Shown here: piece after piece, positions 1 through 22,756 of the stretch | Layout: the number at the start of each line of letters is the position of its first letter | Position numbering within the stretch: the stretch's first letter is position 1 | Sequence record: OR352940.1 | DNA length: 64,000 bases | Reading direction: 5' to 3' (one strand) | Origin: Escherichia phage AV110 | Program-made: the position numbers and the translations under genes | The notes under the pieces: model-generated | Databases searched by the model: none | Told to the model about the DNA's origin: nothing | Seen by the model: the letters and a program-made list of their open reading frames with translations, nothing else

Positions 1-96
1 AATCTTTACATATCTTTCACTAATTTCCATTATGTCATTAATGAAAGTTGTTTTACCAGCATTATCCGGGCCATCTACTAAAATAATTTTAGCCAT
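1..96 (-). CDS. P-loop NTPase/kinase-like protein, N-terminal fragment (gene runs off window start)
   Basis: Minus-strand ATG at 94-96; translated N-terminus MAKIILVDGPDNAGKTTFIN has a Walker A motif (GxxxxGKT). Not UvsX-like. Confidence 0.5.
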   Translation of the reverse strand, partial: MAKIILVDGPDNAGKTTFINDIMEISERYVKI

Positions 97-97
97 T

Positions 98-997
98 TTA
101 TTCCTCGATTACGACATCTTCATATTTAGGTATATTATACGGCGAAGAAATTAAAGCATTAAAGTAGATGAACTCACCAAGACCTGGATGGAATACTTCT
201 TCAGGATTTTCGAAATATTGAATTTTCGGACGCCCTTTAAGAATTTGATAGTACTCTGTTTTAGTTGGTTTAAAAATTCGAATCAGCGCTTCTTCAGGAT
301 ACTTATTTCTGTCGAAGCTATTATTTGGATCGGTTATATAAAGCGGTTGGCCTAATTGAATTGCACATTCAACCACTTGTTCAAAACGATAGCACGGGTC
401 ACTAATTCGAAATGGATGAAAAATACCATCTAGATAAATAGGAGCCAAATCACCTACAAGACGCTGCATGATGGAAGGACGTATAACTTTCTGCGTTACG
501 ATAATCTTATTACCATCTGCACCTGCGTTAACCAGCACTTCTTTTTGACGTTCATTCAACACAGTAGTTTGAAGTGAACGATTAACCGACAACATATCAG
601 TTTTTAAGAATTCATCAATATAAAAACGTGGTTTATTAGGGTCTGCAGTGATATTGAAATTGAATTCCACATCAAAAGCGCCGTCATATCCAGTGATATC
701 TGTGATTAGAAAATCACAGTCATAATAAGCAATTAATGAATCAACCACAAATCCATTTTCAGACCAGAAATATTTACGAGTGTTATACGCGTTATCTTTA
801 TACCATAATGGAACAAACTTAAATTCTGGAAAAAGACGTTCGCATTCTTTAATATCAGATGCATTACGTGGATATGTAATCACATCACCCGGATTAGCAC
901 GGTGCAAATGAAGTTGGAAGTTGCCATCCTTAAGGATAGCATACTGTCCAGTTTCATAAGACCGCATACTCAAGATTGGTACGCGGAAAATAGCCAT
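98..997 (-). CDS. hypothetical protein (299 aa); positional candidate for the hmC-DNA glycosyltransferase (T4 beta-gt slot)
   Basis: Long minus-strand ORF next to gene 42 homologue; no motif recognised; function inferred from synteny only. Confidence 0.55.
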   Translation of the reverse strand: MAIFRVPILSMRSYETGQYAILKDGNFQLHLHRANPGDVITYPRNASDIKECERLFPEFKFVPLWYKDNAYNTRKYFWSENGFVVDSLIAYYDCDFLITDITGYDGAFDVEFNFNITADPNKPRFYIDEFLKTDMLSVNRSLQTTVLNERQKEVLVNAGADGNKIIVTQKVIRPSIMQRLVGDLAPIYLDGIFHPFRISDPCYRFEQVVECAIQLGQPLYITDPNNSFDRNKYPEEALIRIFKPTKTEYYQILKGRPKIQYFENPEEVFHPGLGEFIYFNALISSPYNIPKYEDVVIEE

Positions 998-1713
998 TAG
1001 TCAAGGAATCCTTTAACATAATCAAAATCACGTTCAAACACATGGGCACTTACCATGGTATGAGTATAATCACCAACTTCTACACCGCATTCGTTAGCGA
1101 TATAATGAAGTAATTTTCCTTGGAGATAAAAATCCAACTGCATAACAACAGCACAGTTCTGAGAACGCATATGACAGTGGGTATAAAGCTTACCATCACG
1201 AATATAATAAGTCACTGAGTCAGTACATGGATATTCAAGTGTTTCGTCTGAATCAAGCAAAGCCTGATCAGAACTTTCTAGAATTTGGAACACAACTCTT
1301 CGGGAGTTAGGCTTCTCTTTAAGTTCTTTTAGAAGAGCTGGTAATTGAGCCGCAATGCGAGGACCATAGAAAGTGTTGAAGTTCGCCGGCAAAACATCTG
1401 ATTTTGGTTTAGAAATAAATTTAGCGACATTAGGATATGTCTTAAACGCTTCTTCTGCGTTGGTACCACCAGAAATCATAAACTTCCAGAAGTCTTCGGC
1501 ATATTCATAAGAGATGCGGTTAATACGTGGGTCGGTCATTTTGAATGATGATGGAGTGTCAACAACTACTGTCATAGACCCAATTTCATTACAACGTCCA
1601 ATACGAGAATCAGTTACGAATTCCGGGTTTTCTAAAATTTCACGATTGACTGCTTTAAATGCGGTTTGAAAATCTGCGGCTTTGATATATTTCATTGTGT
1701 TATGTTTTCCCAT
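997..1713 (-). CDS. 42: dCMP hydroxymethylase-like (thymidylate synthase superfamily)
   Basis: 238 aa; segment YPCTDSVTYYIRDGKLYTHCHMRSQNCAV resembles the T4 gp42 catalytic-Cys region as I recall it; sits upstream of gene 43 as in T4. Confidence 0.75.
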   Translation of the reverse strand: MGKHNTMKYIKAADFQTAFKAVNREILENPEFVTDSRIGRCNEIGSMTVVVDTPSSFKMTDPRINRISYEYAEDFWKFMISGGTNAEEAFKTYPNVAKFISKPKSDVLPANFNTFYGPRIAAQLPALLKELKEKPNSRRVVFQILESSDQALLDSDETLEYPCTDSVTYYIRDGKLYTHCHMRSQNCAVVMQLDFYLQGKLLHYIANECGVEVGDYTHTMVSAHVFERDFDYVKGFLD

Positions 1714-1755
1714 GTTTACCTCAATACAATTTATTATATACTCAATTCGTAAAGC

Positions 1756-1995
1756 TTATTTGAATTTCTTGACAATGTTGACATAACGTAAAGCTTCAGC
1801 ATCGATACTTCCAAGAACACTATGAAGAAATGCATCAGCGTAGTATTCCAATTGAACAGGTTCTTTAATCACTTTAGCCGCTTTAGTTTCAAACAGGCCC
1901 ATCAGGGCCTTTTTAAGAATTTGTTCATTAGTGTTCAGATTCATAGTCAAAATCTCTTCATTAAGTTGGTGGTTAAAAGTTTTTCTAGAAATCAT
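1756..1995 (-). CDS. hypothetical protein (79 aa)
   Basis: ORF in operon orientation; 4-nt overlap with next gene. Confidence 0.45.
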   Translation of the reverse strand: MISRKTFNHQLNEEILTMNLNTNEQILKKALMGLFETKAAKVIKEPVQLEYYADAFLHSVLGSIDAEALRYVNIVKKFK

Positions 1996-3152
1996 TCCGG
2001 GTACCTCAAAGCGTCATCAGAGTTAGTTATATCAATAATAGATATAGAGTTTTCTGCTAACCCGTTTTTAGATAATTGACGTTTATAATATCTTTCACAA
2101 TATGTACACGTCGTCCCGCAGATTTCATTAGCACAATCGAAATCTGGATGTCTGAACCACCTTTTTTCTAAAAAGCCATCTAACAAAGAGGTTTCAATAT
2201 TTACTGTATGTGAAAACTCAGTTTCGTTTTCAAGAGTGAAAATAGTCTCTAAAGGCTTCCACAGTTCTAACAAATTACCTTCAAACTTTTCAGAAGCGTA
2301 TGCTTCAAGAACTTTCAAAATGTAGTCTGTGCTACCTGTACGTCCTGAAACTTTGAATTGAGTGATACCAATATCATTATAAAGTTTCAAATCTTGAGGA
2401 CGAACAAAACGAGTTCTCAACCAGTTAAATGGGTCTGTATCACGAGCTTTAATACAGTGCTGCATAGGATATCCGTTTAAGGATTTAGCATCATCAGCTG
2501 TAACATCAGTACTATGGAAAATATAGCAAGAGTCACGATAGCTACAATGTGTTGTATACCCTTTACCAGCATTAGAACAGAACTCATTTACAAGAACTTC
2601 AAATATTATATTGTTCTTATTGCAAAACTCTGCTGCACGCTTCAGGAAAGAAACTGAACGGTTCTTATGAATTCCACAGCAGACCTTTTTGATATTATAT
2701 TGGTCATGCAAGTATTTGATTTGAGTTACAGCATCGACATGTAGAATTGTTGAAACTTCAATCTCAATGTCTTTATTGACTTCACGAACAATTTCCATAA
2801 CAACAGGGTTAGCGATAGTAATACGCCATACGCCTATTGACCAAAGATACTGAACATAATCCTGAATAGCTTTCTTCTTCCACTCAACTAGTTCTCTTTT
2901 TGAACCAGGATTTATCGTGTTGAGTGTATAGTTAAAGCAAATACCTAATTCGTTACAACGTTTAACGTAATCTTCTAACATCTTTTTGTCAACGTCAGGA
3001 AGCCTAAAATCAGGTCTGGCTGCTACAAAAGCCATTTCTCTTGTAGAGCCATATACTTCGTTTATCAAGCTATTAGGATAGGTTTTATTGAGCTCTACGA
3101 TTTTATCAAGAAGAGCTAAATCAAAATTTGTTCCGATTTTAAAAGTATTCAT
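1992..3152 (-). CDS. Cys-rich enzyme-like protein (386 aa) with C-terminal CxxxCxYC motif; function unknown
   Basis: Long ORF; C-terminal ...CANEICGTTCTYCERYY contains a CX3CX2C Fe-S-type motif with the aromatic residue typical of radical-SAM clusters, but at the C-terminus. Confidence 0.65.
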   Translation of the reverse strand: MNTFKIGTNFDLALLDKIVELNKTYPNSLINEVYGSTREMAFVAARPDFRLPDVDKKMLEDYVKRCNELGICFNYTLNTINPGSKRELVEWKKKAIQDYVQYLWSIGVWRITIANPVVMEIVREVNKDIEIEVSTILHVDAVTQIKYLHDQYNIKKVCCGIHKNRSVSFLKRAAEFCNKNNIIFEVLVNEFCSNAGKGYTTHCSYRDSCYIFHSTDVTADDAKSLNGYPMQHCIKARDTDPFNWLRTRFVRPQDLKLYNDIGITQFKVSGRTGSTDYILKVLEAYASEKFEGNLLELWKPLETIFTLENETEFSHTVNIETSLLDGFLEKRWFRHPDFDCANEICGTTCTYCERYYKRQLSKNGLAENSISIIDITNSDDALRYPE

Positions 3153-3211
3153 TTTTTTTGCATCTCACGTTAATTGATGCGATGGTTTTTTTGCAGGTCT
3201 TACTTAAATTA

Positions 3212-3613
3212 TTATAGATTCGGTTTATACGATTTAAATGTTTCGAATTCGCCTTTATTCATAAGAGCTTTGAATTCGTCAGGACGCATAGCTTTGTCGT
3301 CGATAATCCAATCATATACTGGTTTATGTGTTAGCAAATTATGGTACTTCAAGCCAATGTTTGCCAAGTTCTGAATCAGACTTGGGAGAATGTCAATTGC
3401 TATACGACCAGGACCTACTGACTTCATACCGCGAGCAGTGTAAAGCGTTATTGTATGCCCTGCATCATACAGAGCATTAATGGCAGACACCATTTCGACG
3501 TCCGGTTTGAAGTTCACATAATCACGATTGTTATTCCACTCTGTTATACAATCATCGACATCAAAACAAAGATTAAGCATGTTTTCTACACGGTGCATTA
3601 GATTCGTTCCCAT
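3212..3613 (-). CDS. small HAD-superfamily phosphatase-like protein (KdsC-like)
   Basis: 133 aa; motif FDVDDCIT matches HAD motif I (DxDx[T/V]). Confidence 0.6.
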   Translation of the reverse strand: MGTNLMHRVENMLNLCFDVDDCITEWNNNRDYVNFKPDVEMVSAINALYDAGHTITLYTARGMKSVGPGRIAIDILPSLIQNLANIGLKYHNLLTHKPVYDWIIDDKAMRPDEFKALMNKGEFETFKSYKPNL

Positions 3614-5283
3614 TGATGAGTGATATCGCCACCGATTGGACGATAAGAAACACCAGTTTCTTTATCAGTTAGTACCCATTTACCAGGATTTTTTGTAATC
3701 AGAGTAGCCGTTACAGGTTCTGCTACGTCATAACTAATAGAGCCGTCCTGAAGTACACGGCCCATGTTACGTAATTGCTTAGTCAGAAGTTCCATACCTT
3801 TATAATATGCGGCTACCGCTTTAAGTGGATTATTCTTGAAATAACCACCTAATGCAATCCAGATAATTGCTACAGCCAAATGATGATATTCATTAAACGA
3901 ACTCAGCTTTCCATATTTGTAAACTAATGGATTGATGTTAATAGTCACATTACAAGTTGTTTCATCAATAGTAAACTGTCCCCAGGTCGGATTAGCGTTG
4001 AATTCATCATAACCTGAAACAGCGTAAAGCACTTTAGCTTCGTCGTACAATTTCGGCCCGTAAATCTTGGTTTCGCCAAAATATCCACGAGGGTCGATAA
4101 ACTTGACTTCGCCGTTATCAGTAATCATAGTATTACTGAAGTTCGGGTCACCATGAATAACAGAGTACTGTCCCTGAGAACGGTTATGATAACGAATAAG
4201 GTGTTCTAAAGCTTGTTTCAGCATTGGCTTCAGACGTCCAATCTTAGTGTAGTTCACATGTGTGATTTTACCAAATGAATCAATCAATGGTTGAATGCTT
4301 TCACAACGATCAATAACTTTCGTATAGAATTCTTTAGTGAAATCACGACGAACAGTTTCAGGACTTACAAAATAAGTGTCTGCGCTGAATTTCAGTGCAT
4401 CTAAAATTGCATCAATAATTTGTGGACGAGCAAGACTTGATTTTGATTTAATATATTCAAATGCCGGCTTACCTTTAATGCGTTCCATTTCAAAGTTATT
4501 TTCATTAACAGAAACTAACTGAGGAACTGAATCTGATTTCACTTTCAAATACCACGAAATCTCATCTTTCTGAAGAGCTCGACCCTGTTCGGTTAATGCG
4601 AATTTAGTTACAGTTTCTTCGCCAATTTCAACTGCATTAAAACTACGGTTCAGTTCACGAACTTCATGGGCCTTTTCAAGTTTAGGCATATCACCAAGGT
4701 CGATGATATTCATAAGCTCTGATTTATTGAATGCGCCGCTGTAAAGGAATTCTACGAAATCACGTCCTTTGCAGTATTCATGAATTTCCTCATCGGTAGA
4801 ACCCATATAGAATTCCCAGTCTTTGAACTGATAAATTCCTACAACATTACCGCCTGTTTCACCTACATTAGTGATATTTTCACCATCGAAATTATACCGA
4901 CATTCATCACCCTTAACATAGATTGCGTTAACATTCCAAGACCAAGAACCAAAATCGGGAATAATATCACACCAGTTAACAATTACATTATGGCCGTCTA
5001 AATCTTTGTGTAATTTAGCAAGAGCATAAGCAGAACCATACGCTTCATCAACTGTACGAATAGTCACATTGAACCCTTCTTGCTCACAATAAGCTCGAAC
5101 AGTTTCAGCAAATTTTGAATGAACTACTACAATAATTTCATCTGCGCCAAGGTCAGAATAAATTGTATACAAATTGCTCAGAATAGTGTCTTGCTTATAG
5201 TTAACAAGCACCTTAGGAATATGATGCGTTATTGGATACAAACGAGTTGCCAGTCCAGCACCAAGAATAACAGCTTTTTTCAT
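3598..5283 (-). CDS. bifunctional sugar-1-phosphate nucleotidyltransferase / APH-ChoK-like kinase
   Basis: 561 aa; N-terminus MKKAVILGAGLATRLYPIT is the G-x-G-T-R-L NDP-sugar pyrophosphorylase signature; C-terminal half has HGDPNFSN...FIDPRGYFG (Brenner HGD kinase motif plus DFG-like). Confidence 0.8.
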   Translation of the reverse strand: MKKAVILGAGLATRLYPITHHIPKVLVNYKQDTILSNLYTIYSDLGADEIIVVVHSKFAETVRAYCEQEGFNVTIRTVDEAYGSAYALAKLHKDLDGHNVIVNWCDIIPDFGSWSWNVNAIYVKGDECRYNFDGENITNVGETGGNVVGIYQFKDWEFYMGSTDEEIHEYCKGRDFVEFLYSGAFNKSELMNIIDLGDMPKLEKAHEVRELNRSFNAVEIGEETVTKFALTEQGRALQKDEISWYLKVKSDSVPQLVSVNENNFEMERIKGKPAFEYIKSKSSLARPQIIDAILDALKFSADTYFVSPETVRRDFTKEFYTKVIDRCESIQPLIDSFGKITHVNYTKIGRLKPMLKQALEHLIRYHNRSQGQYSVIHGDPNFSNTMITDNGEVKFIDPRGYFGETKIYGPKLYDEAKVLYAVSGYDEFNANPTWGQFTIDETTCNVTININPLVYKYGKLSSFNEYHHLAVAIIWIALGGYFKNNPLKAVAAYYKGMELLTKQLRNMGRVLQDGSISYDVAEPVTATLITKNPGKWVLTDKETGVSYRPIGGDITHQWERI

Positions 5284-5324
5284 GTTGAAGTCCTCATTGG
5301 TAAGTAGGAGTATTGTACACTATT

Positions 5325-5468
5325 CTAGTTAAAGCATTCATACTTTGCCTGTAGACCAATCATAATCCATCCAATTACAAGTGTTGGAATCATTACCGGA
5401 GCCGTTAAGCTCCAGTAGATAGTCATGGCAAGCATCAATAGTAAAAGTCCTATTGTTATTGCTTTCAT
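5325..5468 (-). CDS. small hydrophobic membrane protein (47 aa), below ORF-track cutoff
   Basis: ATG overlaps stop of upstream SIS gene (ATGA); GAGG upstream; product MKAITIGLLLLMLAMTIYWSLTAPVMIPTLVIGWIMIGLQAKYECFN is a predicted TM peptide. Confidence 0.35.
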   Translation of the reverse strand: MKAITIGLLLLMLAMTIYWSLTAPVMIPTLVIGWIMIGLQAKYECFN

Positions 5469-6100
5469 TGTTCGCCTCGTAACATGGCACCTAGTGCACC
5501 ACCTGGATGGAACTTAAGGAAGTCATTAGAGGTAAATCCACGTTCAGACGAAAGGTTGATAGCGAACGTATCGATAAGCGCTAACAACAATGTAGTAGAC
5601 ATTGTCGGAGCTAAAGAGTTCTCGTCAACTTCTACCGCGATACCGGTACAGAACGTATAATCAAAAAGAGCTTCGTATTCTTGTGGAATGTCAGGGTTAC
5701 AATGTAACAGAATCTGTTTAACCTGAGGACGAATCATACGAAGATGTTTAGCAACACCTATCATTTCTTCAGTCTTACCAGAACGACTGATGTGAACTAA
5801 TACATCATTAGGTGCAATAAATCCTGCGTCACCATGAGAATAATGCCCAGTGTTCAAGTACATACTTGGGATACCGAGTGAAGCAAAAGTCTCGGAAGCT
5901 TTAGTTGCGATATTAGCGTTCTTACCAACACCTGTAATAATTACTCGGCTTTCATAATTACTAAGTCCCGGGCGTCGAAGAGTTTCTAGAATAGCATTAT
6001 AACGAGCAGGGTTTTGACTAATTACTTTAGCCATAGTGGCAAGAGATGAAGCTTGTTTTACGATTGCGTCAATAGCGATAGTGATTGGTGTAGTTTTCAT
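5465..6100 (-). CDS. SIS-domain sugar-phosphate isomerase, KdsD/GutQ (arabinose-5-phosphate isomerase)-like
   Basis: 211 aa; ITGVGKNANIATK and HYSHGDAGFI..ISRSGKTEE resemble KdsD SIS motifs; C-terminal FHPGGALG is KdsD-like; no CBS domains. Confidence 0.8.
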   Translation of the reverse strand: MKTTPITIAIDAIVKQASSLATMAKVISQNPARYNAILETLRRPGLSNYESRVIITGVGKNANIATKASETFASLGIPSMYLNTGHYSHGDAGFIAPNDVLVHISRSGKTEEMIGVAKHLRMIRPQVKQILLHCNPDIPQEYEALFDYTFCTGIAVEVDENSLAPTMSTTLLLALIDTFAINLSSERGFTSNDFLKFHPGGALGAMLRGEQ

Positions 6101-6140
6101 ATTTCTCTCATTTAATTAGTTGGCCGTCCTTGGCATTATA

Positions 6141-8852
6141 TCAAAAATCAAACATATCGAACAGAGATGCTTTCTTCTCGTAATCGAGTTTAGCTGCTGA
6201 TGTGAATCCTTCAAGTGGTTTAATAAATGTCTTCTCAAGGAGAACAGTGTAGTCCATCCAATGAAGTACGTCGTCTTTAATTAAATCTGTGATTTCAGTA
6301 CCAGAAGGCCATGCGATACATTTATCACCGAATGGGTTTCCTTCACGTAAAGGCAGAACATATACTTTTTCACCTTCTACAACTTGTGGTGCATCAATAT
6401 TACCTTTGATAGCTCGGTTATATGTCAGAATTCCACGAATATGGAACGGGCATTTAGGACCCGGGAATCCACCTACGTCATATTTAGCAATGTTATTCGC
6501 AGAAGATACCGACGCGATGCTAATATAATTCAATTGACGGAATTCTTTTTCAAACTCTTTAAAATATTCTTGTAATGATTCTTCACCTTCTTGAAGCATA
6601 CGACGAATACATTCTTTAAGAGCTTTCTGTACTGCTTTAGGAGTCGAAGATTTCTGAGTCTCTAGACCCATGATTTTGAGTTTAGGCTCAGCGTAACGAG
6701 TGCCTTCCATATCCCACACGTTTAATGCATAACGTTTCTTACCAGTCCAGAATCCACCAATACCTTTAGAACCGAGCGGAGGGCCAGCAATAGCTTCTCG
6801 GTCCATGAACATTAAGTGTTGTTTATTGTTCATGTATTCACACATTTCACGGAAACCTCTATCAATAGCAGGTTCCATACGTTCACGAGCGAACTTATCT
6901 AAGAAGTCTACCCAATGGTTGGTATCACGGAATTTAGATTCACCAACCTTATCGATAATTTTATCGGCAGATACGTAAATAGAGTCTGTATCACCATATA
7001 GAACGAAAGCTTCACCTTCTGTACCACAAACTTCATTCAGATATTCATTAACTTTACGTTCAATCCACTGTAAAGCCATTTGTCCGAATGTTGTGATTGC
7101 AGTAGCATTACGCAAATCATAATAACGGAACCAAACGTTGCCAAGTGCACCATAAAGTGAGTTGATAAGCAATTTACGGTTAATTTGTGCGGTCATACCT
7201 GCAACTTCAGTACGTTGAGCTCTAAACAACATTTCATTAAGAGATTTAGCAGACAACTTTTTAATCTTTTCTTTAATCTCATCACTGAAGTCGAAACGAT
7301 AATCAACATCTAATGGTTCGTCAACAGAAAGATTAGGATTATGCAATGCCTCTTTAATTATTTCACCATTACGTTGAGCTGCAAGCATATAACCTTTATG
7401 TTCTTTACGTTGATTAAAGACCTTAGTGATTTCAGTTGGAACTACACCATCACGGTCTTTATAATACATCATGCCGTTAGGAGAGCAACTGTACACATCT
7501 GAAGGACGTTCAGCGATTGCGTTAATATAATCATGCAATGGAGCTACTTTAAACGTTCCTGCTATTGTTTCCGGGCTAATATTCACTTGGCGAATAATAC
7601 TTGGATACAGAGATGTAAGGTCGAAACTCATTACATATTTGTATCGATTTGGAATAGGTTCCTTAACAAAAGCGCCAGGATAAGGTTGAACCGGGTGAGA
7701 ACGACCTTGTGGAATCACCTTGTTTTGTTCTTTAAGGCTATTAAAAATAATAGCATCCCAAGTTTTAATTGGACTGAACACAGATTGAATCTGAATTTTA
7801 GCATAATAACCCATGTCCAAGCTCAAGTTGATGAACTGACGCTTAGAATCAATTTGCAATACACGATACACGTCGATAATGTTATAAGAAATATATCGTT
7901 GGTGATTGCTTTCACGAAGCTTAGAAATAGGGCCGTCATATTTCAGTTTACCAACGTTCAATTCAAATTCTGAAATGTAATCCAGAGAATACGACGGTTG
8001 ATTGGTAAAAGAGAATTTTTTGTAAAGGTCAATGTAATCAAGAACAGAGATACCGAACAATGTAATGATTTCACGAGAACCATACATGTTTTCGATAACT
8101 TTAACACGAGTTTTACGATGCGGCGATAAACGTTTCGCAGTAGATTCGCCAAAAATATTCTTGATTCGGTTATACACATATGGAATATCAAATGACTCAA
8201 CGTTCCATCCAGTCAAAATGACAGGAGTTTTCTGTTGCCAGAAGTTGAGATATTCCATCAACAATTCTTTTTCGTTATCGAACGGCATATAAATGATTTT
8301 ATCGATAATTTCAGATGGAACTTCATCACCGCCTTGTTCTTGAAGCTTAGCAGCGATTTCAATAGACCATTCTTCTACATTACCATATGGAGAATTCAAT
8401 AGATCAAATACGTAGAACCTGTCGTCAATTGAGTCATAATGGGTGATAGCATCAATCGGATGTTTTGCTTGTGACGGCTCAGGGAACCCGTCCGGAGATG
8501 TTACTTCGATGTCGAAGTTAGCCACACGAATTTTTGTATGGTCGTATTTGATTTCATAGTTATAAGTGTCAGACAAATACGCCAATTTGAAATCGTCCAT
8601 GCCAAGTGCTTCAAGTCCGATATCTTCCATGCGTTTAATCCATTGGGAGGCATCACGCATATTAGCGAACAACTTACGAGTACACGGCTTACCGTAGATA
8701 TCGAAATATTTCGTAGCCTGACTTTCCGGACAATGAGCAAACAGTGATGGTTTATATTCTACTTCACGAGTACGTTCACGGCCATTAGAATCGATGTAAC
8801 GTTCAAAAATTGAATCACCAATCTGTTCAACCGTTAAGTAAAATTCTTTCAT
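6141..8852 (-). CDS. 43: DNA polymerase (family B), gp43
   Basis: 903 aa; exonuclease motifs (FDIEV, ..FDIPYVY), polymerase motifs (DxxSLYPS, YGDTDS); N-terminus MKEFYLTVEQIGDSIFERY matches RB69 gp43 as recalled. Confidence 0.97.
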   Translation of the reverse strand: MKEFYLTVEQIGDSIFERYIDSNGRERTREVEYKPSLFAHCPESQATKYFDIYGKPCTRKLFANMRDASQWIKRMEDIGLEALGMDDFKLAYLSDTYNYEIKYDHTKIRVANFDIEVTSPDGFPEPSQAKHPIDAITHYDSIDDRFYVFDLLNSPYGNVEEWSIEIAAKLQEQGGDEVPSEIIDKIIYMPFDNEKELLMEYLNFWQQKTPVILTGWNVESFDIPYVYNRIKNIFGESTAKRLSPHRKTRVKVIENMYGSREIITLFGISVLDYIDLYKKFSFTNQPSYSLDYISEFELNVGKLKYDGPISKLRESNHQRYISYNIIDVYRVLQIDSKRQFINLSLDMGYYAKIQIQSVFSPIKTWDAIIFNSLKEQNKVIPQGRSHPVQPYPGAFVKEPIPNRYKYVMSFDLTSLYPSIIRQVNISPETIAGTFKVAPLHDYINAIAERPSDVYSCSPNGMMYYKDRDGVVPTEITKVFNQRKEHKGYMLAAQRNGEIIKEALHNPNLSVDEPLDVDYRFDFSDEIKEKIKKLSAKSLNEMLFRAQRTEVAGMTAQINRKLLINSLYGALGNVWFRYYDLRNATAITTFGQMALQWIERKVNEYLNEVCGTEGEAFVLYGDTDSIYVSADKIIDKVGESKFRDTNHWVDFLDKFARERMEPAIDRGFREMCEYMNNKQHLMFMDREAIAGPPLGSKGIGGFWTGKKRYALNVWDMEGTRYAEPKLKIMGLETQKSSTPKAVQKALKECIRRMLQEGEESLQEYFKEFEKEFRQLNYISIASVSSANNIAKYDVGGFPGPKCPFHIRGILTYNRAIKGNIDAPQVVEGEKVYVLPLREGNPFGDKCIAWPSGTEITDLIKDDVLHWMDYTVLLEKTFIKPLEGFTSAAKLDYEKKASLFDMFDF

Positions 8853-12308: not shown

Positions 12309-13997
12309 TTATGAAACAGTCATTACAGTAAATCGTCCAACTTTGCTCATTTGCAAATGTTGTCCATAACGTTGAGGGTCATGGTCCCTATGAGAAATAA
12401 TGAACACGTTAGTATTTTGTAAACTTCCAAGAATGGTATCTATAGCCTTAACAGCTTCAGAATCAACTGCCCCATCAAAAACCTCATCAAGAATCAGAGT
12501 GTTGATTTTAACACCAGAGACCTTTTCAGCAATATCTCGCCATGTAAACAACAACGCGATATCAATGCGTGCTTTTTCACCTTGACTAAATGAAGCATAA
12601 CTAAAATCTTCACGACCACGTGATTTTATAGATTCATTGAATTCTTCATCAATAGAAAACACGTAATCAGCTTCCATAATTTTAAGATAATGGTTAATCT
12701 GCTTGTTGAACAGAGGCACATATTTTTTAATGATAGCACCTTTAATACCAGAATCTTTTAACATATCTGTGATAATACCACGATGGTATTTTTCAAGAAC
12801 GATATCCGATTTTGTTTTAATGATTTTATCAAGTTCTTTTTGAAGCAAAGCTATCTCATCGGCATGGTCGATAAATTCTGCTGAGGCTTGCTCTATTGCA
12901 GCTTTAACTTTCTTAGCTTTATCAATAGTGGCAATCATTGCTTGTTTCTTGGTACGAATATCAGATGCAAGGTCCTGTTTAGTCTTAACATTAGCTCTAT
13001 ATTCGTCCACTAGGACACTCAGATTATCTCTGTGACATGTAAGTTGCTCGAATGAGTGATTACATTCATGAAGCTTATCGGTAATCTTAGAGACAATAGG
13101 ATCACCCTGGTGCAACTGTGATGCGCAAGTAGGACATGTACCGCCGTCATGATACATCTTAATAACTTTGTTGTATGAGTCAATTTTAGATTTAATCAAG
13201 AATGCTTCTTGTCCTATCTTGTTGAATGCCTCAGTAGGGTCTTCATCAAGAACGATATTAAGTAGTCGCTCATTAGCTTCTTCGATTTCTGCTTTTAATG
13301 AACGAGCTTCTTTGGCTAGGTCGTCATACATATTCTGTAGACGCGCTACATTATCACCAGATAATTTCTTTTGACGTTCGATATTCTCGTTATAAATCTT
13401 AATTTGTTGGATAACACCATCTTTCTTGGCATCGAGAACTTGTCCCTGAGAATTAAGTTCGCGAACTTGAGACTTATTGATTTTATCCATTTCAGCGAGT
13501 GTGCCGACTTCTAAAAGGTCTTCGACAAGTTTTCTACGAGCAGGGGTGCTAAGAGCCATGAAAGGGGTATACCCTGCCGTCCCAAGCACAACGATCTGTT
13601 TAAAAGACGCGTATGACATTCCGATGCTACGTTCAAATTCTTCTTGGAAGTCACGACTGCTGGCAGATTCATCGAGACGAACACCGTCAACGGAGATTTC
13701 GAAAATATTGGGCTTTTGGCCACGTTTAATGAAGTATTTTTTATCATCGAATTCCATCCAAAGCTCAACTAAGAGCTCTTTCTTGTTCGTGCTATTAATG
13801 ATTTGTCCTTTCTTAACATCACGAAATGGTTTACCGAAAAGTCCGAAAGTAATGGCTTCTAACATCGTAGATTTACCACCGCCATTTTTACCGGTGATTA
13901 AGGTCTTTTGGACTTTATCTAATTGGATATCGATAGGATTCCCACCTACCGACATGATGTTTTGATAACGAACACGATTTAATTTAAATGATTTCAT
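12309..13997 (-). CDS. 46: recombination endonuclease subunit gp46 (SbcC/Rad50-like ATPase)
   Basis: 562 aa; Walker A GKNGGGKST; coiled-coil middle; C-terminal LILDEVFDG signature/Walker B region. Confidence 0.92.
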   Translation of the reverse strand: MKSFKLNRVRYQNIMSVGGNPIDIQLDKVQKTLITGKNGGGKSTMLEAITFGLFGKPFRDVKKGQIINSTNKKELLVELWMEFDDKKYFIKRGQKPNIFEISVDGVRLDESASSRDFQEEFERSIGMSYASFKQIVVLGTAGYTPFMALSTPARRKLVEDLLEVGTLAEMDKINKSQVRELNSQGQVLDAKKDGVIQQIKIYNENIERQKKLSGDNVARLQNMYDDLAKEARSLKAEIEEANERLLNIVLDEDPTEAFNKIGQEAFLIKSKIDSYNKVIKMYHDGGTCPTCASQLHQGDPIVSKITDKLHECNHSFEQLTCHRDNLSVLVDEYRANVKTKQDLASDIRTKKQAMIATIDKAKKVKAAIEQASAEFIDHADEIALLQKELDKIIKTKSDIVLEKYHRGIITDMLKDSGIKGAIIKKYVPLFNKQINHYLKIMEADYVFSIDEEFNESIKSRGREDFSYASFSQGEKARIDIALLFTWRDIAEKVSGVKINTLILDEVFDGAVDSEAVKAIDTILGSLQNTNVFIISHRDHDPQRYGQHLQMSKVGRFTVMTVS

Positions 13998-14248
13998 ATG
14001 TATTCTCTTCGAATGAAGTCCTCTACATATTTTAACATGTCATCTCTATCAGCAAAATATTCATCTAGTTCTGCATACATAACAACACCTGGTGCATACT
14101 CACAGGTAACATACATTGTTCCAAAGAAACGAGGAGTTGATTCCTCGTAATTCTCAGTCCATTCAACGATACCAATATAACCGTCACCAATACTAAATTC
14201 ATGACGATGGATTTCATAATCAGTCTTCGTCATTATACGCATCCTCAA
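13994..14248 (-). CDS. hypothetical protein (84 aa)
   Basis: ORF between 46 and 47, overlapping start/stop. Confidence 0.5.
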   Translation of the reverse strand: MRMRIMTKTDYEIHRHEFSIGDGYIGIVEWTENYEESTPRFFGTMYVTCEYAPGVVMYAELDEYFADRDDMLKYVEDFIRREYI

Positions 14249-14477
14249 TACACGCTTCAGCCATTTTAAGAATAGAGCCGGGAGTATCGTTGTCCATTAT
14301 ATTAAAGCTAAATTCAATAGCCCAGTCGGTGCAGACATGAACTGCTTTAACTTCATTGCCTTCAACGCGTAATGGCTCAATCCAATACTTGATGGTGTTC
14401 TCGAATCCATCATCGTCTTTAACGTCTATTTCAACTTCAAGCCCGAGCCCAGCATTGTTAAATTCATCTAAAGTCAT
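14220..14477 (-). CDS. hypothetical acidic protein (85 aa)
   Basis: ORF between 46 and 47. Confidence 0.5.
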   Translation of the reverse strand: MTLDEFNNAGLGLEVEIDVKDDDGFENTIKYWIEPLRVEGNEVKAVHVCTDWAIEFSFNIMDNDTPGSILKMAEACIEDAYNDED

Positions 14478-15493
14478 TGTGTTGCCTCAATATAAAGTTC
14501 GTTGGAATATTTGACCAGCGCTTCTCTGTCTTCGTCTGAGATATCTGGAATCGCGTCAATATATTCTTTAATGATATCTTGAAGTGATTTAATCTCAATT
14601 TCCTGGTCATCATCAGATTCAACACTGTTATCAAATTTAGAAACCATACGAAGAGAGTGAACTACTTTTTCAAGTTCAGATTCAAACTTAGTCAACTCTG
14701 AATCAATTTCTGATACTATAACACGTACGGCTAGATTAGTATAATCAGAATAATTAATTTTGCCTTTAAACGGATAAGTGATTCGTCGATGCCATGTTGT
14801 TTCATTAGGAATAAATTCCATACGTTCAACATCAGTGTCAAATACCCAGAATCCGCGTGGGTCGTTCTCATCGCCTGCAGTAAGGGTCCATGGTGTCCCA
14901 ATATATTTGACGTTAGCAGCTTCAGAGATTGTGTGGAAGTGGCCGGACCAGACTTGTTTATAGGTCTTTAAGAAATCAGGTTCAAGCCCATGAGACTTCA
15001 TTCCTTTATAGAAATAAAAGCCATTTAATTCCCAGTGCCCAACACAATACGCGGCGGAAGAAGTCTTGATGTGCTCTAAGATTTCACCTGTATTTTCTTC
15101 ACACATCCATGGAACGATATCAATCAGACATCCGTCAAAATCTACAGTAGTCGGATGCTCGTAAATAGTAAAGTTTTCAAATTGAGTTAACAATTCAGAA
15201 ACAGTGTTAGGTGTTATTGTATTCTTAAACGCCATGTCATGGTTTCCTATCGTGACATGAACGTGAATGCCTGCTTTAGAAATCATATCAACGATTTCAC
15301 GATTGAATTCCATTGTACGATGTGTTATTGCTTTACGGACGTCAAACCAATCACCGTACTGAATCCAAGTTTTAATCCCGTGTTTCTTAGAGTATTCAAT
15401 TGCTTGTTGAATACCATCACGTTGAATATCTTGAACCCATGGGTCGTCTTGTTTGACTCCGATATGGAAGTCGCCTAAGTGCAAAATTTTCAT
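14474..15493 (-). CDS. 47: recombination nuclease subunit gp47 (Mre11/SbcD-like phosphoesterase)
   Basis: 339 aa; MKILHLGDFHIG... calcineurin-like phosphoesterase motifs (GDxH, GNHD). Confidence 0.92.
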   Translation of the reverse strand: MKILHLGDFHIGVKQDDPWVQDIQRDGIQQAIEYSKKHGIKTWIQYGDWFDVRKAITHRTMEFNREIVDMISKAGIHVHVTIGNHDMAFKNTITPNTVSELLTQFENFTIYEHPTTVDFDGCLIDIVPWMCEENTGEILEHIKTSSAAYCVGHWELNGFYFYKGMKSHGLEPDFLKTYKQVWSGHFHTISEAANVKYIGTPWTLTAGDENDPRGFWVFDTDVERMEFIPNETTWHRRITYPFKGKINYSDYTNLAVRVIVSEIDSELTKFESELEKVVHSLRMVSKFDNSVESDDDQEIEIKSLQDIIKEYIDAIPDISDEDREALVKYSNELYIEATQ

Positions 15494-16281: not shown

Positions 16282-16491
16282 TTATCTCATTAAATTAAAA
16301 TAAAAACGTCCGTCCTCTTCAATACAGAACTCGTACTCAACTGGAGTTCCATTTATCGAAAATGACACGTCATGTGGGTTCAAAGGGTCGATGTCAAAAT
16401 TAATTTTAAATTCTCGACCCAACAGTTTTACCAAATAAGGGATTGCTTCGTCAAAAGGTTCTTCTAAGTAGTTAGAGATGTCAATTGTCAT
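16282..16491 (-). CDS. hypothetical protein (start trimmed to internal Met)
   Basis: ORF-track N-terminus overlaps gene 55 by ~95 nt; likely starts at MTIDIS. Confidence 0.4.
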
Positions 16492-17056
16492 CCTCATATA
16501 AAAAATCCAAACTAGGCGAATCGCTAACAACTTCCTTCTTTTCAGCCCCAGGAGCTTTATAAGCGGATTCTTCATAATGCGTCATTTTATCGTAGATGTC
16601 TTGAATAAACGTTTCATCTACCAACGCTACCATATCATCGTCATGACTGTCGTAGACATTATGAACGAAGTAACTATATTTCTTTGCAACTTCCTTACGT
16701 TCTTTTTTGATACGTTGGACAAAAGCATTAAAACAAGCTCGAGTTATGTATGCATGTGGGTTATTGTACTTAGTTTCGTCGAAATTATGAAGTCCCTTAA
16801 TAGAGGCTTCAATCCCATCTGCAATCATCTCCTGCTTCCAAGACTGGGTATATCCTGAAAAGTTGAAACGTTTGGACAGGCCTTCGGCGATAAGCATAAT
16901 TGCTAAACCGATAGTATCATTCTGACGAATAATTTTGTTTGGGTCTTTATTATTTAAGAGCTCCTTTTTCCACTCGATTATAGCGGCGAGAAGCTCTTTA
17001 TTATTCACATAGTTATTTTTAGGTTTTTGTTCAGTCATAAGTACCTCTTGGCTCAA
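16481..17056 (-). CDS. 55: late-transcription sigma factor gp55
   Basis: 191 aa; [27 protein letters not shown]...[35 protein letters not shown] matches T4 gp55 as recalled; exact start (M1 vs M7) uncertain. Confidence 0.9.
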
Positions 17057-20471: not shown

Positions 20472-20942
20472 TTAATCATGTTTCCACACCCCATCGGTAT
20501 TTGACCAAAGTCGCTGGTTATCTGATCCTCGCCACAGTTTTTTGGTCGGAAGATTTTTCTCATACTTCCCATCAATAATAACATCAACATATTTAAGCAT
20601 TTCTAGTTGTTTAATATCTTCAAACTTATATCCTGTCCACAACCAAATGCTTTTATTTGGATAAAGATTTTTTACTGTTTGAACAATGCAATGAATAACA
20701 TCTCGGTTATCAGGATAGAGAGGGTCACCTCCGGTTATAGTCAATCCTTCTATATAATCATTATTCAAACATTCAATTAATTGTTCTAGTGTTTCGCCAG
20801 TGAATGGAATACCATTTCTAGCATTCCATGTTGATTTATTATAACACCCTTCACATTTATGCAAACAACCTGTAACGAAAAGAACGACCCTGCAACCAGG
20901 GCCATTCACAAAATCGCAAGGATAAAATCTATCATAATTCAT
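20472..20942 (-). CDS. nrdG: anaerobic ribonucleotide reductase activating protein NrdG (radical SAM)
   Basis: 156 aa; CLHKCEGC cluster motif; overlaps nrdD stop. Confidence 0.9.
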   Translation of the reverse strand: MNYDRFYPCDFVNGPGCRVVLFVTGCLHKCEGCYNKSTWNARNGIPFTGETLEQLIECLNNDYIEGLTITGGDPLYPDNRDVIHCIVQTVKNLYPNKSIWLWTGYKFEDIKQLEMLKYVDVIIDGKYEKNLPTKKLWRGSDNQRLWSNTDGVWKHD

Positions 20943-22756
20943 TGGTGTTTAACCCTATGCATGATTTCTTTATTTTTACCGAGATTAAATCCGCGTTCGT
21001 TCGGATTTCCCAAATAACCACAAGTTCTTCTTATTGTGTTCATCTTTTTAGGATCAGTTTCTCCGCAAACTGAACAAACAAATCCATTTTCAGTAGGAGT
21101 CATTTCATGAGTACTTCCGCATGTAAAACATTTATCTACTGGCATATTAACACCAAAATAATCTAAATGTTGTGCAGCATAATCCCATACAGCCTCAAGT
21201 CCCTTTAAATTGTTTTTCATATCTGGAAGTTCAACATAAGAAATGTGACCGCCTGTCGCAATGAAATGATACGGCGCTTCACGAGAAATCTTTTCAAACG
21301 GAGTAATATTTTCTTCTACTGAAACATGGAAACTATTAGTGTACCAGCCTTTATCTGTAACATCTTTTACACTTCCATATTTTTCTGTGTCGAGTTTACA
21401 AAAGCGATAACAAAGGTTTTCAGCAGGAGTAGAATATAAACTAAAAGCAAATCCGGTTCTTTCAGTCCACTGTTTAAGATGAGCATTCATTTTAGTTAAA
21501 ATTTCTTGTCCAATATCACGACCGACAAGAATATTCAATTCGTGAATACCAATGTATCCCAAAGACACTGAACTTCTACCGTTTTTAAATAACTCAATTA
21601 TATCGTCATCAGGTTTAAGACGAACCCCAAATGCACCTTCTTGGTAAAGAATAGGAGCAACAGTCGCTTTAACTCCTTTTAAGGAACTAATTCTACACAT
21701 CAAAGCTTCAAAACACAGGTCCATTCGTTCGTTAAATAGCTCAACAAATTTCTGTTCATTGAACTGTGTTCCAATATAAGAATCTAACGCAATACGAGGA
21801 AGATTCAGTGTTACAACACCAAGATTATTACGTCCATCAAGAATTTCATTACCAGTCGAATCTTTCCATACGCTCAAGAAACTACGGCAACCCATCGGAG
21901 AAACAGGAACTGAAGAACCGGTAATAGCTTTATTATTCTTAACCGAAATAATGTCAGGATACATTCTTTTGCTTGCACATTCTAACGCAAGTTGTTTAAT
22001 ATCATAGTTCGGATCGTCTTTATAAAGATTAACACCTTCTTCAACGAACATAACAAGCTTAGGGAAAATAGGAGTTATTCCATCACGACCAAGACCTTTA
22101 ATGCGGTTTTTAAGAATTGCCTTCTGAATCATTCGTTCAGTCCAATCGGTTCCCGTACCAAATGTAATTGTTACAAAAGGAGTTTGTCCGTTTGAACTAA
22201 AGAGAGTATTTACTTCATATTCATAAGCTTGGAATGCGTCATAGACATCTTTTTCTGTTTTAGATTGAGCATAATTCAGAATGTCTGGTATTTGCCATTT
22301 TTCTGCATCTTCAACATGTTTAGCGTATGTACGTTTAACATAAGGAGAAAGAACTTTATCGACATTCGCAAATGTAGTTCCGCCATACTGATGTGAAGCA
22401 ACCTGTGCAGTAATTTGTGCCATAATTGCAGTAGCAACGCCAATAGATTTAGGCGTTTCAATTTGAGCATTGCCTAATTTAAATCCATTCTCAAGCATCC
22501 CCTTTAAATCGACTAAACAGCAATTGGTAAACGGAAGAGCAGGAGAATAATCAATATCATGCATGTGAATGATTCCGCTTTCATGCGCATTCATAATAAA
22601 AGACGGGACCATATTTTTGGCAATGTGCTTAGACACAATACCAGCCATAAGGTCCCGTTGAGTTGGAAAAACACGAGAATCTTTATTAGCATTCTCGTTT
22701 AAAAGGTCTTTATTAGTTTTATGAATTAATCCTTCAATTTCTTTTTCAATTTTCAT
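20939..22756 (-). CDS. nrdD: anaerobic (class III) ribonucleotide reductase NrdD
   Basis: 605 aa, uninterrupted (no intron); C-terminal Zn-ribbon CxxC..CxxC and glycyl-radical motif RRTCGYLG. Confidence 0.95.
   Translation of the reverse strand: MKIEKEIEGLIHKTNKDLLNENANKDSRVFPTQRDLMAGIVSKHIAKNMVPSFIMNAHESGIIHMHDIDYSPALPFTNCCLVDLKGMLENGFKLGNAQIETPKSIGVATAIMAQITAQVASHQYGGTTFANVDKVLSPYVKRTYAKHVEDAEKWQIPDILNYAQSKTEKDVYDAFQAYEYEVNTLFSSNGQTPFVTITFGTGTDWTERMIQKAILKNRIKGLGRDGITPIFPKLVMFVEEGVNLYKDDPNYDIKQLALECASKRMYPDIISVKNNKAITGSSVPVSPMGCRSFLSVWKDSTGNEILDGRNNLGVVTLNLPRIALDSYIGTQFNEQKFVELFNERMDLCFEALMCRISSLKGVKATVAPILYQEGAFGVRLKPDDDIIELFKNGRSSVSLGYIGIHELNILVGRDIGQEILTKMNAHLKQWTERTGFAFSLYSTPAENLCYRFCKLDTEKYGSVKDVTDKGWYTNSFHVSVEENITPFEKISREAPYHFIATGGHISYVELPDMKNNLKGLEAVWDYAAQHLDYFGVNMPVDKCFTCGSTHEMTPTENGFVCSVCGETDPKKMNTIRRTCGYLGNPNERGFNLGKNKEIMHRVKHQ

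Follow-up and report, generated by a model that had tools for sequence, protein, structure and literature searches.

The RB69-type arabinosylation cluster has been described in several publications, with Mahler 2025 reportedly among them. The present analysis concerns positions 1-6100 of a 64,000-nucleotide stretch of Escherichia phage AV110 (OR352940.1; the whole stretch is called the window), where a gene cluster of this type adjoins the DNA polymerase gene, and above all its 386-amino-acid (aa) U32-family protein, the counterpart of RB69 gp50. The arabinosylation pathway is already known (Thomas 2018, Mahler 2025, He 2026, Lee 2026), and because it was published between 2018 and 2026 the finding of the cluster as such matters little. 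An earlier note on this DNA, made from its letters, had doubted how much of the pathway was already in print, and justifiably so, since essentially all of it is. The new lead is gp50, which has no assigned role in the literature covered.

Mass spectrometry (MS) and nuclear magnetic resonance (NMR) of RB69 DNA identify mono- and di-arabinosylated 5-hydroxycytosine (5hoC), with the sugar joined to C5 via an ether oxygen (Lee 2026, PMC13326640), and high-performance liquid chromatography (HPLC) with MS of phage NP DNA reveals 5-ara-dC and 5-ara-ara-dC (Durham Collection paper, PMC13390438). Expression and labelling showed that RB69 gp48, a thymidylate synthase (TS) homologue, makes 5-hydroxy-dCMP (5hodCMP), takes 18O from 18O2 and binds flavin (Lee 2026, PMC13326640). 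The same paper assigns gp55 as arabinose-5-P isomerase, gp52:53 as kinase/UDP-sugar pyrophosphorylase, and gp51 as HAD phosphatase. It takes gp46:47 and gp3 to be the arabinosyltransferases and ascribes the gene splits in RB69 (46/47, 52/53) to sequencing errors. For phage HY126 (AfhE, AfhF), the order reported by He 2026, as far as it is summarised by Lee 2026 (PMC13326640), runs from arabinose-5-phosphate (Ara5P) through arabinose-1,5-bisphosphate (Ara-1,5-P2) and arabinose-1-phosphate (Ara1P) to UDP-arabinofuranose (UDP-Araf). The glucosyl-5-hydroxymethylcytosine (hmC) system of T4 is alike in occupying the slot next to gene 43 and in combining a TS-family dCMP enzyme, a kinase, the polymerase, a GT-B enzyme and a UDP-sugar. 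It differs in that the arabinosylation system installs a hydroxyl (flavin/O2, Asn for Asp169) rather than a hydroxymethyl group, attaches arabinofuranose rather than glucose, and has no orthologue of alpha-gt or beta-gt. Because the sugar is arabinofuranose and not the glucose of T4, the phage has to synthesise the sugar nucleotide itself.

Region 1-6100 shares 98-99% nucleotide identity (98.8%) with many Mosigvirus (RB69-like) genomes, with at least 80% of it covered in 152 phage records, and is 98.5% identical to vB_Eco_NicPhage (phage NP), the phage whose virion DNA was chemically analysed. The ara-5hoC systems of RB69 (gp45-gp55), HY126 ('Afh') and Bas46-47 have the same genus, gene order and proteins as the window. 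Nothing material differs from the RB69 system; the window glycosyltransferase (299 aa) and bifunctional enzyme (561 aa) are unsplit, and the second glycosyltransferase (RB69 gp3), the deoxynucleoside monophosphate (dNMP) kinase and the dCTPase are not among the genes of the window. As judged from sequence, the window holds another Mosigvirus copy of the already published RB69-type module. The region is very probably a cytosine hypermodification cluster making 5-O-arabinosyl-5-hydroxycytosine DNA in an RB69-like Mosigvirus, given the Mosigvirus identity, the near-identical proteins (PDB 9IQC, PDB 9IQW, RB69 U32), the D169N/N177D/L143E signature, the GT-B fold and the published chemistry. The minus strand carries every cluster open reading frame (ORF) as well as DNA polymerase gp43 (6141-8852, ORF translation), which adjoins the SIS gene. 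Nine genes fill the slot beside gene 43, encompassing the SIS isomerase, a 47-aa ORF, the nucleotidyltransferase-kinase, the HAD phosphatase, U32, p79, the TS homologue, the glycosyltransferase and a nucleotide kinase, while the same slot in T4 reads 43-imm.1-imm-42-b-gt-segA-uvsX. The synteny proposed in the earlier note, with extra enzymes in the T4 beta-gt/imm slot, is thus borne out by the T4 gene order, and its ORFs, motifs and domain calls all hold in translations and in Pfam and NCBIfam searches; its idea of NDP-arabinose synthesis coupled to DNA glycosylation by the phage is likewise supported, and was a sensible deduction from the letters.

The signature resides in the 238-aa TS homologue (997-1713; RB69 gp48), which matches PF00303 (2.4e-15) and is about 97% identical to PDB 9IQC and 9IR2 across its full 238 aa, with an E-value of 2.9e-160 for 9IQC. 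Alignment to E. coli ThyA and T4 gp42 identifies the catalytic C163, along with E160 (L143E), D194 (N177D) and N186 (D169N). At ThyA position 169, T4 gp42 carries Asp whereas the window protein carries Asn, a residue common to 6/6 other aligned homologues from arabinosylating phages, and D169N is the signature proposed for 5hodCMP synthases (Lee 2026, PMC13326640). By its residues and its near-identity to characterised structures, the window protein is a flavin/O2-dependent 5hodCMP synthase, not a hydroxymethylase. As in the literature on near-identical proteins, it would hydroxylate dCMP at C5 with flavin and O2, and 5hodC would then enter DNA via dNMP kinases and the polymerase.

The earlier note had called this gene a dCMP hydroxymethylase (gene 42) and had placed it in a model where 5-hydroxymethyl-dCMP is made, hmC is arabinosylated, free arabinose is an intermediate and the 299- and/or 386-aa proteins are the transferases. 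The TS homologue does occupy the gene 42 slot and shares with T4 gp42 an Asp at ThyA 177 and an acidic residue at 143, and RB69 arabinosylation was reported as ara-hmC by Thomas 2018. However, the Asn at position 169, the 18O2 incorporation by gp48 and the attachment of the RB69 sugar to C5 through oxygen all contradict the model, and the Durham Collection paper (PMC13390438) terms the hmC assignment erroneous. By the published chemistry of RB69 and of the near-identical phage NP, the acceptor base is 5-hydroxycytosine and not 5-hmC; for these two phages nucleoside chemistry rules hmC out, and as an account of the window the model is scarcely credible.

The 386-aa protein (1992-3152; RB69 gp50) contains 13 Cys and matches Peptidase_U32 (PF01136; 7.3e-11, above the gathering threshold). 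Its fold is a U32 TIM-barrel with a Cys cluster, not that of a glycosyltransferase, so that of the two candidate transferases of the earlier note only the 299-aa protein, with its GT-B fold, retains that role. A PDB sequence search with the 386-aa protein gave no match. It is 99.5% identical to RB69 U32, with conservation of 99-100% across about 150 Mosigvirus genomes and 80-89% across other genera. Among 121 aligned homologues, conservation reaches 95% or more at 88 positions, and ten of these are Cys: C158, C177, C192, C203, C209, C233 and the C-terminal C340-X4-C345-X3-C349-X2-C352. Such conservation argues against a non-functional passenger and also against a collagenase-like peptidase, as the legacy annotation and the database names 'peptidase' and 'collagenase-like protease' would have it. 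In the cited literature, the peptidase view of the family has been superseded by evidence for O2-independent, Fe-S- and prephenate-dependent hydroxylases, leaving both options very improbable.

The preferred reading, to which a probability of roughly 0.55 is given, is that gp50 U32 may be a second, O2-independent hydroxylase with prephenate as oxygen donor and Fe-S clusters, like RlhA, TrhP and UbiU-V. It draws on cytosine C5 hydroxylation being the chemistry needed while the known phage enzyme for the step requires O2, and further on Pfam membership and fold, the invariant Cys, family precedent, linkage to chorismate mutase and 3-deoxy-D-arabino-heptulosonate-7-phosphate (DAHP) synthase genes, and the NrdD/NrdG pair. 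The cited literature provides the precedent: RlhA forms 5-hydroxycytidine (ho5C2501) in 23S rRNA and requires prephenate and Fe-S, TrhP forms ho5U34 in tRNA with prephenate, and UbiU/V of anaerobic ubiquinone synthesis use prephenate as oxygen donor. RlhA and TrhP thus perform pyrimidine C5 hydroxylation, as the cluster needs, and the O2-dependent TrhO, a redundant route parallel to TrhP in E. coli, is a precedent for O2-dependent and O2-independent routes side by side. The window protein shares with these relatives PF01136, the U32 TIM-barrel and two Cys aligned to UbiU ligands; its presumed substrate, a deoxynucleotide or DNA, would differ from their RNA and quinone. Since NrdD and NrdG are encoded in the window (20472-22756, minus strand; NrdG, a 156-aa radical-SAM activase, and NrdD, 605 aa, PF13597 E 2.5e-171), the phage is equipped for DNA synthesis without oxygen, carrying both aerobic and anaerobic ribonucleotide reductases. 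The U32 protein would thereby supply 5-hydroxy-dC nucleotides in the gut, whose lack of oxygen disables the flavin/O2 enzyme.

Several observations weigh against this reading. Of the UbiU 4Fe-4S ligands C169, C176, C193 and C232, only C169 and C176 align, to C192 and C209 respectively. Against a hidden Markov model (HMM) of the phage U32 clade, TrhP reaches 15 bits, RlhA 9 and UbiU 6, indicating a remote relation. No chorismate mutase was found in this window, where the unrelated p79 holds the slot. The E. coli Dhakaviruses possess the cluster without U32, rendering the link to facultatively anaerobic hosts imperfect. In vitro hydroxylation has so far been demonstrated for no U32 protein (cited literature), and gp50 is listed as 'sugar or heterocycle reductase' in Table 1 of Lee 2026 (PMC13326640). 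As for novelty, no literature joining chorismate mutase, phage and hydroxycytosine was found, with He 2026 and Mahler 2025, which lie outside this search, possibly addressing U32; the main text of Lee 2026 makes no mention of U32, chorismate or prephenate, and cites the RlhA paper for an unrelated way of hydroxylating pyrimidines (PMC13326640). The phage protein differs from RlhA, TrhP and UbiU-V in forming a separate subfamily with another Cys pattern (C192/C203/C209/C233 plus the C-terminal CX4CX3CX2C), in which C203, C233 and the C-terminal motif are invariant within the clade and have no aligned UbiU partner. Because the phage clade is a distinct subfamily, the statement that U32 works like RlhA, TrhP or UbiU would apply at the level of the family.

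The reductase label would fit a role in the sugar branch, with U32 tailoring the arabinose donor and no base hydroxylation involved, and so would the position of the gene inside the cluster between the HAD phosphatase and the TS homologue. The comparison with related clusters speaks against it. Acinetobacter phage DLP3 and E. coli Dhakavirus share with the window the SIS isomerase, nucleotidyltransferase-kinase, HAD phosphatase, hydroxylase-type TS homologue, a glycosyltransferase of the 299-aa family (GT299) and the nucleotide kinase, while lacking U32, p79 and chorismate mutase; in Dhakavirus QL01 (L016) the genes are SIS-like, nucleotidyltransferase-kinase, HAD, kinase, TS and glycosyltransferase. 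The full sugar branch therefore occurs without U32, and DLP3, whose two extra glycosyltransferases lead to tri-arabinosylation, has fully tri-arabinosylated DNA. Because DLP3 makes tri-arabinosyl-5hoC without it, the sugar pathway can do without U32. The cited literature knows of no U32 member that acts on sugars, and a role in the sugar branch appears unlikely, also in view of the gene neighbourhoods described below.

The U32 gene occurs in 221 phage records, all of Enterobacterales or Shewanella phages among the matches listed. The 79-aa gene that separates U32 from the TS homologue in Kanagawavirus Entb_45 encodes a chorismate mutase of AroQ type, by an NCBIfam match (E about 3e-9) and by its PGAP name. 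By tblastn, AroQ chorismate mutase is present in 51 phage records of sister genera, lying beside the TS homologue and/or U32 among the matches listed, with hosts including Klebsiella, Serratia (LC53, 92A1), Yersinia, Enterobacter, Edwardsiella, Erwinia, Pectobacterium, Shewanella and others. Shewanella phage Thanatos-2 has a rearranged cluster in which chorismate mutase still directly follows U32, overlapping it. The IMG/VR contig L025 (168,532 bp; U32 89% identical) has the kinase upstream of U32 and the TS homologue directly after it, without p79 or chorismate mutase.

Profile HMMs were used to scan 41 U32 loci outside the Straboviridae, covering about 20 kb around each U32 (~10 kb flanks). 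Among them are uncultured phages whose contigs reach 466 kb and carry PolIII-alpha-type replication modules; their U32 orthologues are 40-58% identical. A GT299 homologue lies in the flanks of 22/41 loci, directly upstream of U32 in 11, and ten loci carry the block GT-SIS-NTase/kinase-(DAHPS)-U32, where GT, NTase and DAHPS denote glycosyltransferase, nucleotidyltransferase and DAHP synthase. In 13/41 loci, a type I-beta DAHP synthase, a fusion of DAHP synthase with chorismate mutase or a stand-alone chorismate mutase lies next to U32; in the phage loci L049, L050, L052, L053 and L063, the gene adjoining U32 encodes a type I-beta DAHP synthase fused to a C-terminal AroQ chorismate mutase. The hydroxylase-type TS homologue appears in 0/41 loci within the flanks, a count in favour of the preferred reading; a point to set against it is that the gene may be located in other parts of those genomes. 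Just one TS-family gene was seen near U32 (L040), a canonical ThyA with L143, D169 and N177.

The placement of U32 after the glycosyltransferase, SIS and nucleotidyltransferase-kinase genes in the ten metagenomic loci would again suit a sugar-branch role. Against that role stand 11 loci with U32 directly beside a glycosyltransferase and with no SIS or nucleotidyltransferase-kinase at all, as well as the recurrent linkage to chorismate mutase and DAHP synthase, which plays no part in pentose chemistry. The phage shikimate-entry enzymes appear to be auxiliary genes for a DNA-modification enzyme rather than for amino-acid synthesis. Under the hydroxylase reading, sister genera and unrelated phages would raise their prephenate supply through their own chorismate mutase or DAHP synthase, and in phages with only kinase, glycosyltransferase and U32, the hydroxyl would come from the U32 protein alone, mirroring the hydroxymethylase, kinase and glycosyltransferase of T4. 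On this comparative evidence it is tentatively proposed, at slightly less than even odds, that RB69-type phages have two unrelated enzymes for one step and that U32 plus glycosyltransferase may constitute a wider, TS-independent 5-hydroxypyrimidine glycosylation module that spans numerous uncultured phages and extends to jumbo phages.

The chorismate mutase linkage would fit equally well if U32 hydroxylated RNA (tRNA U34 or rRNA C2501, of host or phage), as a translation-tuning gene merely located in the cluster, and all nucleic-acid substrates so far characterised for U32 proteins are RNAs. Nevertheless, unrelated phages keep the orthologue in close linkage, frequently with overlapping genes, to members of the DNA-glycosyltransferase family, dNMP-kinase-like genes and the replicative polymerase. 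With 386 aa against 453 aa in TrhP and 653 aa in RlhA, the protein also lacks an aligned counterpart to their C-terminal regions. A further point against RNA comes from a bacterial-looking contig (L003, 8001-15428), which places a U32 orthologue amid NT5C, a PnuC-like transporter, dNK, a radical-SAM gene, a second U32-like gene and a nucleoside deoxyribosyltransferase, with GH43/dockerin, glutamate-cysteine ligase and MarR genes nearby. This nucleoside-salvage-like block points to small nucleotide or nucleoside substrates for U32, and in anaerobes the family may also serve the cell by acting on deoxynucleosides. Hydroxylation of RNA is accordingly held to be improbable for gp50.

If the O2-independent hydroxylase reading is true, U32 would explain the O2-free replication of a gut phage whose DNA has no ordinary cytosine, in parallel with its dual ribonucleotide reductases. 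Prephenate-dependent hydroxylation would then reach DNA precursors, beyond RNA and quinones, and the U32 field would gain an enzyme that is small, soluble and active on a mononucleotide. Many uncultured phages with U32 and a glycosyltransferase but no TS homologue would be likely carriers of glycosylated 5-hydroxypyrimidine DNA, with a bearing on restriction and CRISPR evasion and on phage therapy. The hypothesis is specific and cheaply testable, and bears on the mechanism of U32 hydroxylases.

Adjacent to U32 lies p79 (1756-1995; 79 aa; RB69 gp49), whose start overlaps the U32 stop at 1992-1995, coupling the two translationally. Its sequence is free of Cys and carries the conserved motif Y[Y/F][A/S]DAFxHS, and it gave no Pfam or NCBIfam match. 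It is present in 162 phage records, in Mosigvirus, Tegunavirus and Mosugukvirus, and is absent from genera retaining only chorismate mutase. It fills the slot where sister genera have chorismate mutase, and TG1 and PM2 have both. The possibility of p79 being a divergent chorismate mutase was rejected, with no match to chorismate mutase families and an hhalign probability of 0.1% against the phage chorismate mutases. It may be a U32 accessory factor.

The UDP-arabinofuranose branch is complete by domain and profile matches, comprising isomerase, kinase/nucleotidyltransferase and HAD phosphatase, in agreement with the functions that the earlier note gave to these three proteins. The SIS-domain D-arabinose-5-phosphate isomerase (5465-6100; 211 aa; RB69 gp55) has the motifs GVGKNANIA and FHPGGALG and matches Pfam SIS (8.2e-10), NCBIfam KpsF/GutQ (8.8e-32) and KdsD (3.8e-30), and PDB 3etn (1e-24) and 2xhz (2e-18); it is without the CBS domains of KdsD. 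The 561-aa bifunctional enzyme (3598-5283; RB69 gp52:53, HY126 AfhE type), a single intact ORF here that is split as 52/53 in the RB69 record, combines an N-terminal sugar-1-phosphate nucleotidyltransferase (GAGLATRLYP; NTP_transferase 8.8e-10; NCBIfam sugar-1-phosphate nucleotidyltransferases) with a C-terminal APH/choline-kinase-like kinase (HGDPNFSN...FIDPRG; weak kinase-family Pfam matches at residues 308-409; PDB 1jyk 2e-5). The HAD-family phosphatase (3212-3613; 133 aa; RB69 gp51, HY126 AfhF type) has the motif DVDDC and matches PDB 9IQW (E 7.8e-88) and 1xpj (5e-10) and TIGR01689, the EcbF-BcbF capsule phosphatase (4e-13). Its true start is likely the Met at 3598, giving 128 aa, and the shorter form is annotated in JK45.

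In keeping with published work on near-identical proteins, the SIS isomerase of this branch would convert ribulose-5-phosphate to Ara5P, the kinase domain of the 561-aa enzyme would phosphorylate this to Ara-1,5-P2, the HAD phosphatase would strip the 5-phosphate to yield Ara1P, and the nucleotidyltransferase domain would yield UDP-Araf. The earlier note had instead routed the pathway through free arabinose, and the gp51 entry in Table 1 of Lee 2026 (PMC13326640), 'dephosphorylates Araf5p to Ara', agrees with it. The order reported for HY126, as summarised in the same paper, contradicts this route, which falls with the hmC model of which it formed part.

The GT-B glycosyltransferase (98-997; 299 aa; RB69 gp46:47) is the proposed first DNA arabinosyltransferase and occupies the beta-gt position, a single intact ORF here that the RB69 record divides into 46/47. 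A PDB sequence search gave no match of the 299-aa protein to any chain, T4 glycosyltransferases included. Its family is found in 342 phage records, 57 of them of Acinetobacter phages. By fold, synteny and literature proposal it is inferred to add the first arabinose to the 5-hydroxyl, and the second arabinose would be added by a second glycosyltransferase encoded outside the window (RB69 gp3). No objection of weight to the arabinosylation model itself emerged; the one qualification is that the first transfer step still awaits reconstitution in vitro, single glycosyltransferases having shown no activity on 5hoC DNA (Lee 2026, PMC13326640). At the window edge, positions 1-96 encode the first 32 codons of a thymidylate-kinase-like nucleotide kinase with a P-loop (RB69 gp45 homologue; MAKIILVDGPDNAGKT...), one of two parts missed by the earlier note. 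The full gene in JK45 lies directly downstream of the glycosyltransferase and is annotated 'thymidylate kinase'.

The earlier note's statement that no alpha-gt lies between genes 47 and 55 is upheld: between gene 47 (14474-15493) and gene 55 (about 16480-17056) no alpha-gt is found, because the ORFs there are all of at most 107 aa. A promoter and terminator scan of 1-6300 yielded nothing above shuffled expectation, and base composition reveals no island, with a cluster GC of 0.35-0.41, like the flanks.

In PolIII-alpha-type phage contigs, the GT299-U32 pair is repeatedly preceded, a short way upstream, by a radical-SAM/SPASM protein (L021, 7972-9000; L022, 7980-9011; L002, 1-249; L003, 12160-13185). 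In L003 it adjoins the divergent second U32-like gene (13227-14360). Its recurrence hints at a further modification step.

The other part missed by the earlier note is the 47-aa ORF (5325-5468; RB69 gp54 position; MKAITIGLLLLMLAMTIYWSLTAPVMIPTLVIGWIMIGLQAKYECFN), which sits between the SIS and nucleotidyltransferase-kinase genes with its start overlapping the SIS stop. It is strongly hydrophobic and conserved in the clusters of related phages, with counterparts annotated at the same site in JK45, TG1 and PM2. A putative membrane peptide thus stands inside an otherwise soluble nucleotide-sugar pathway.

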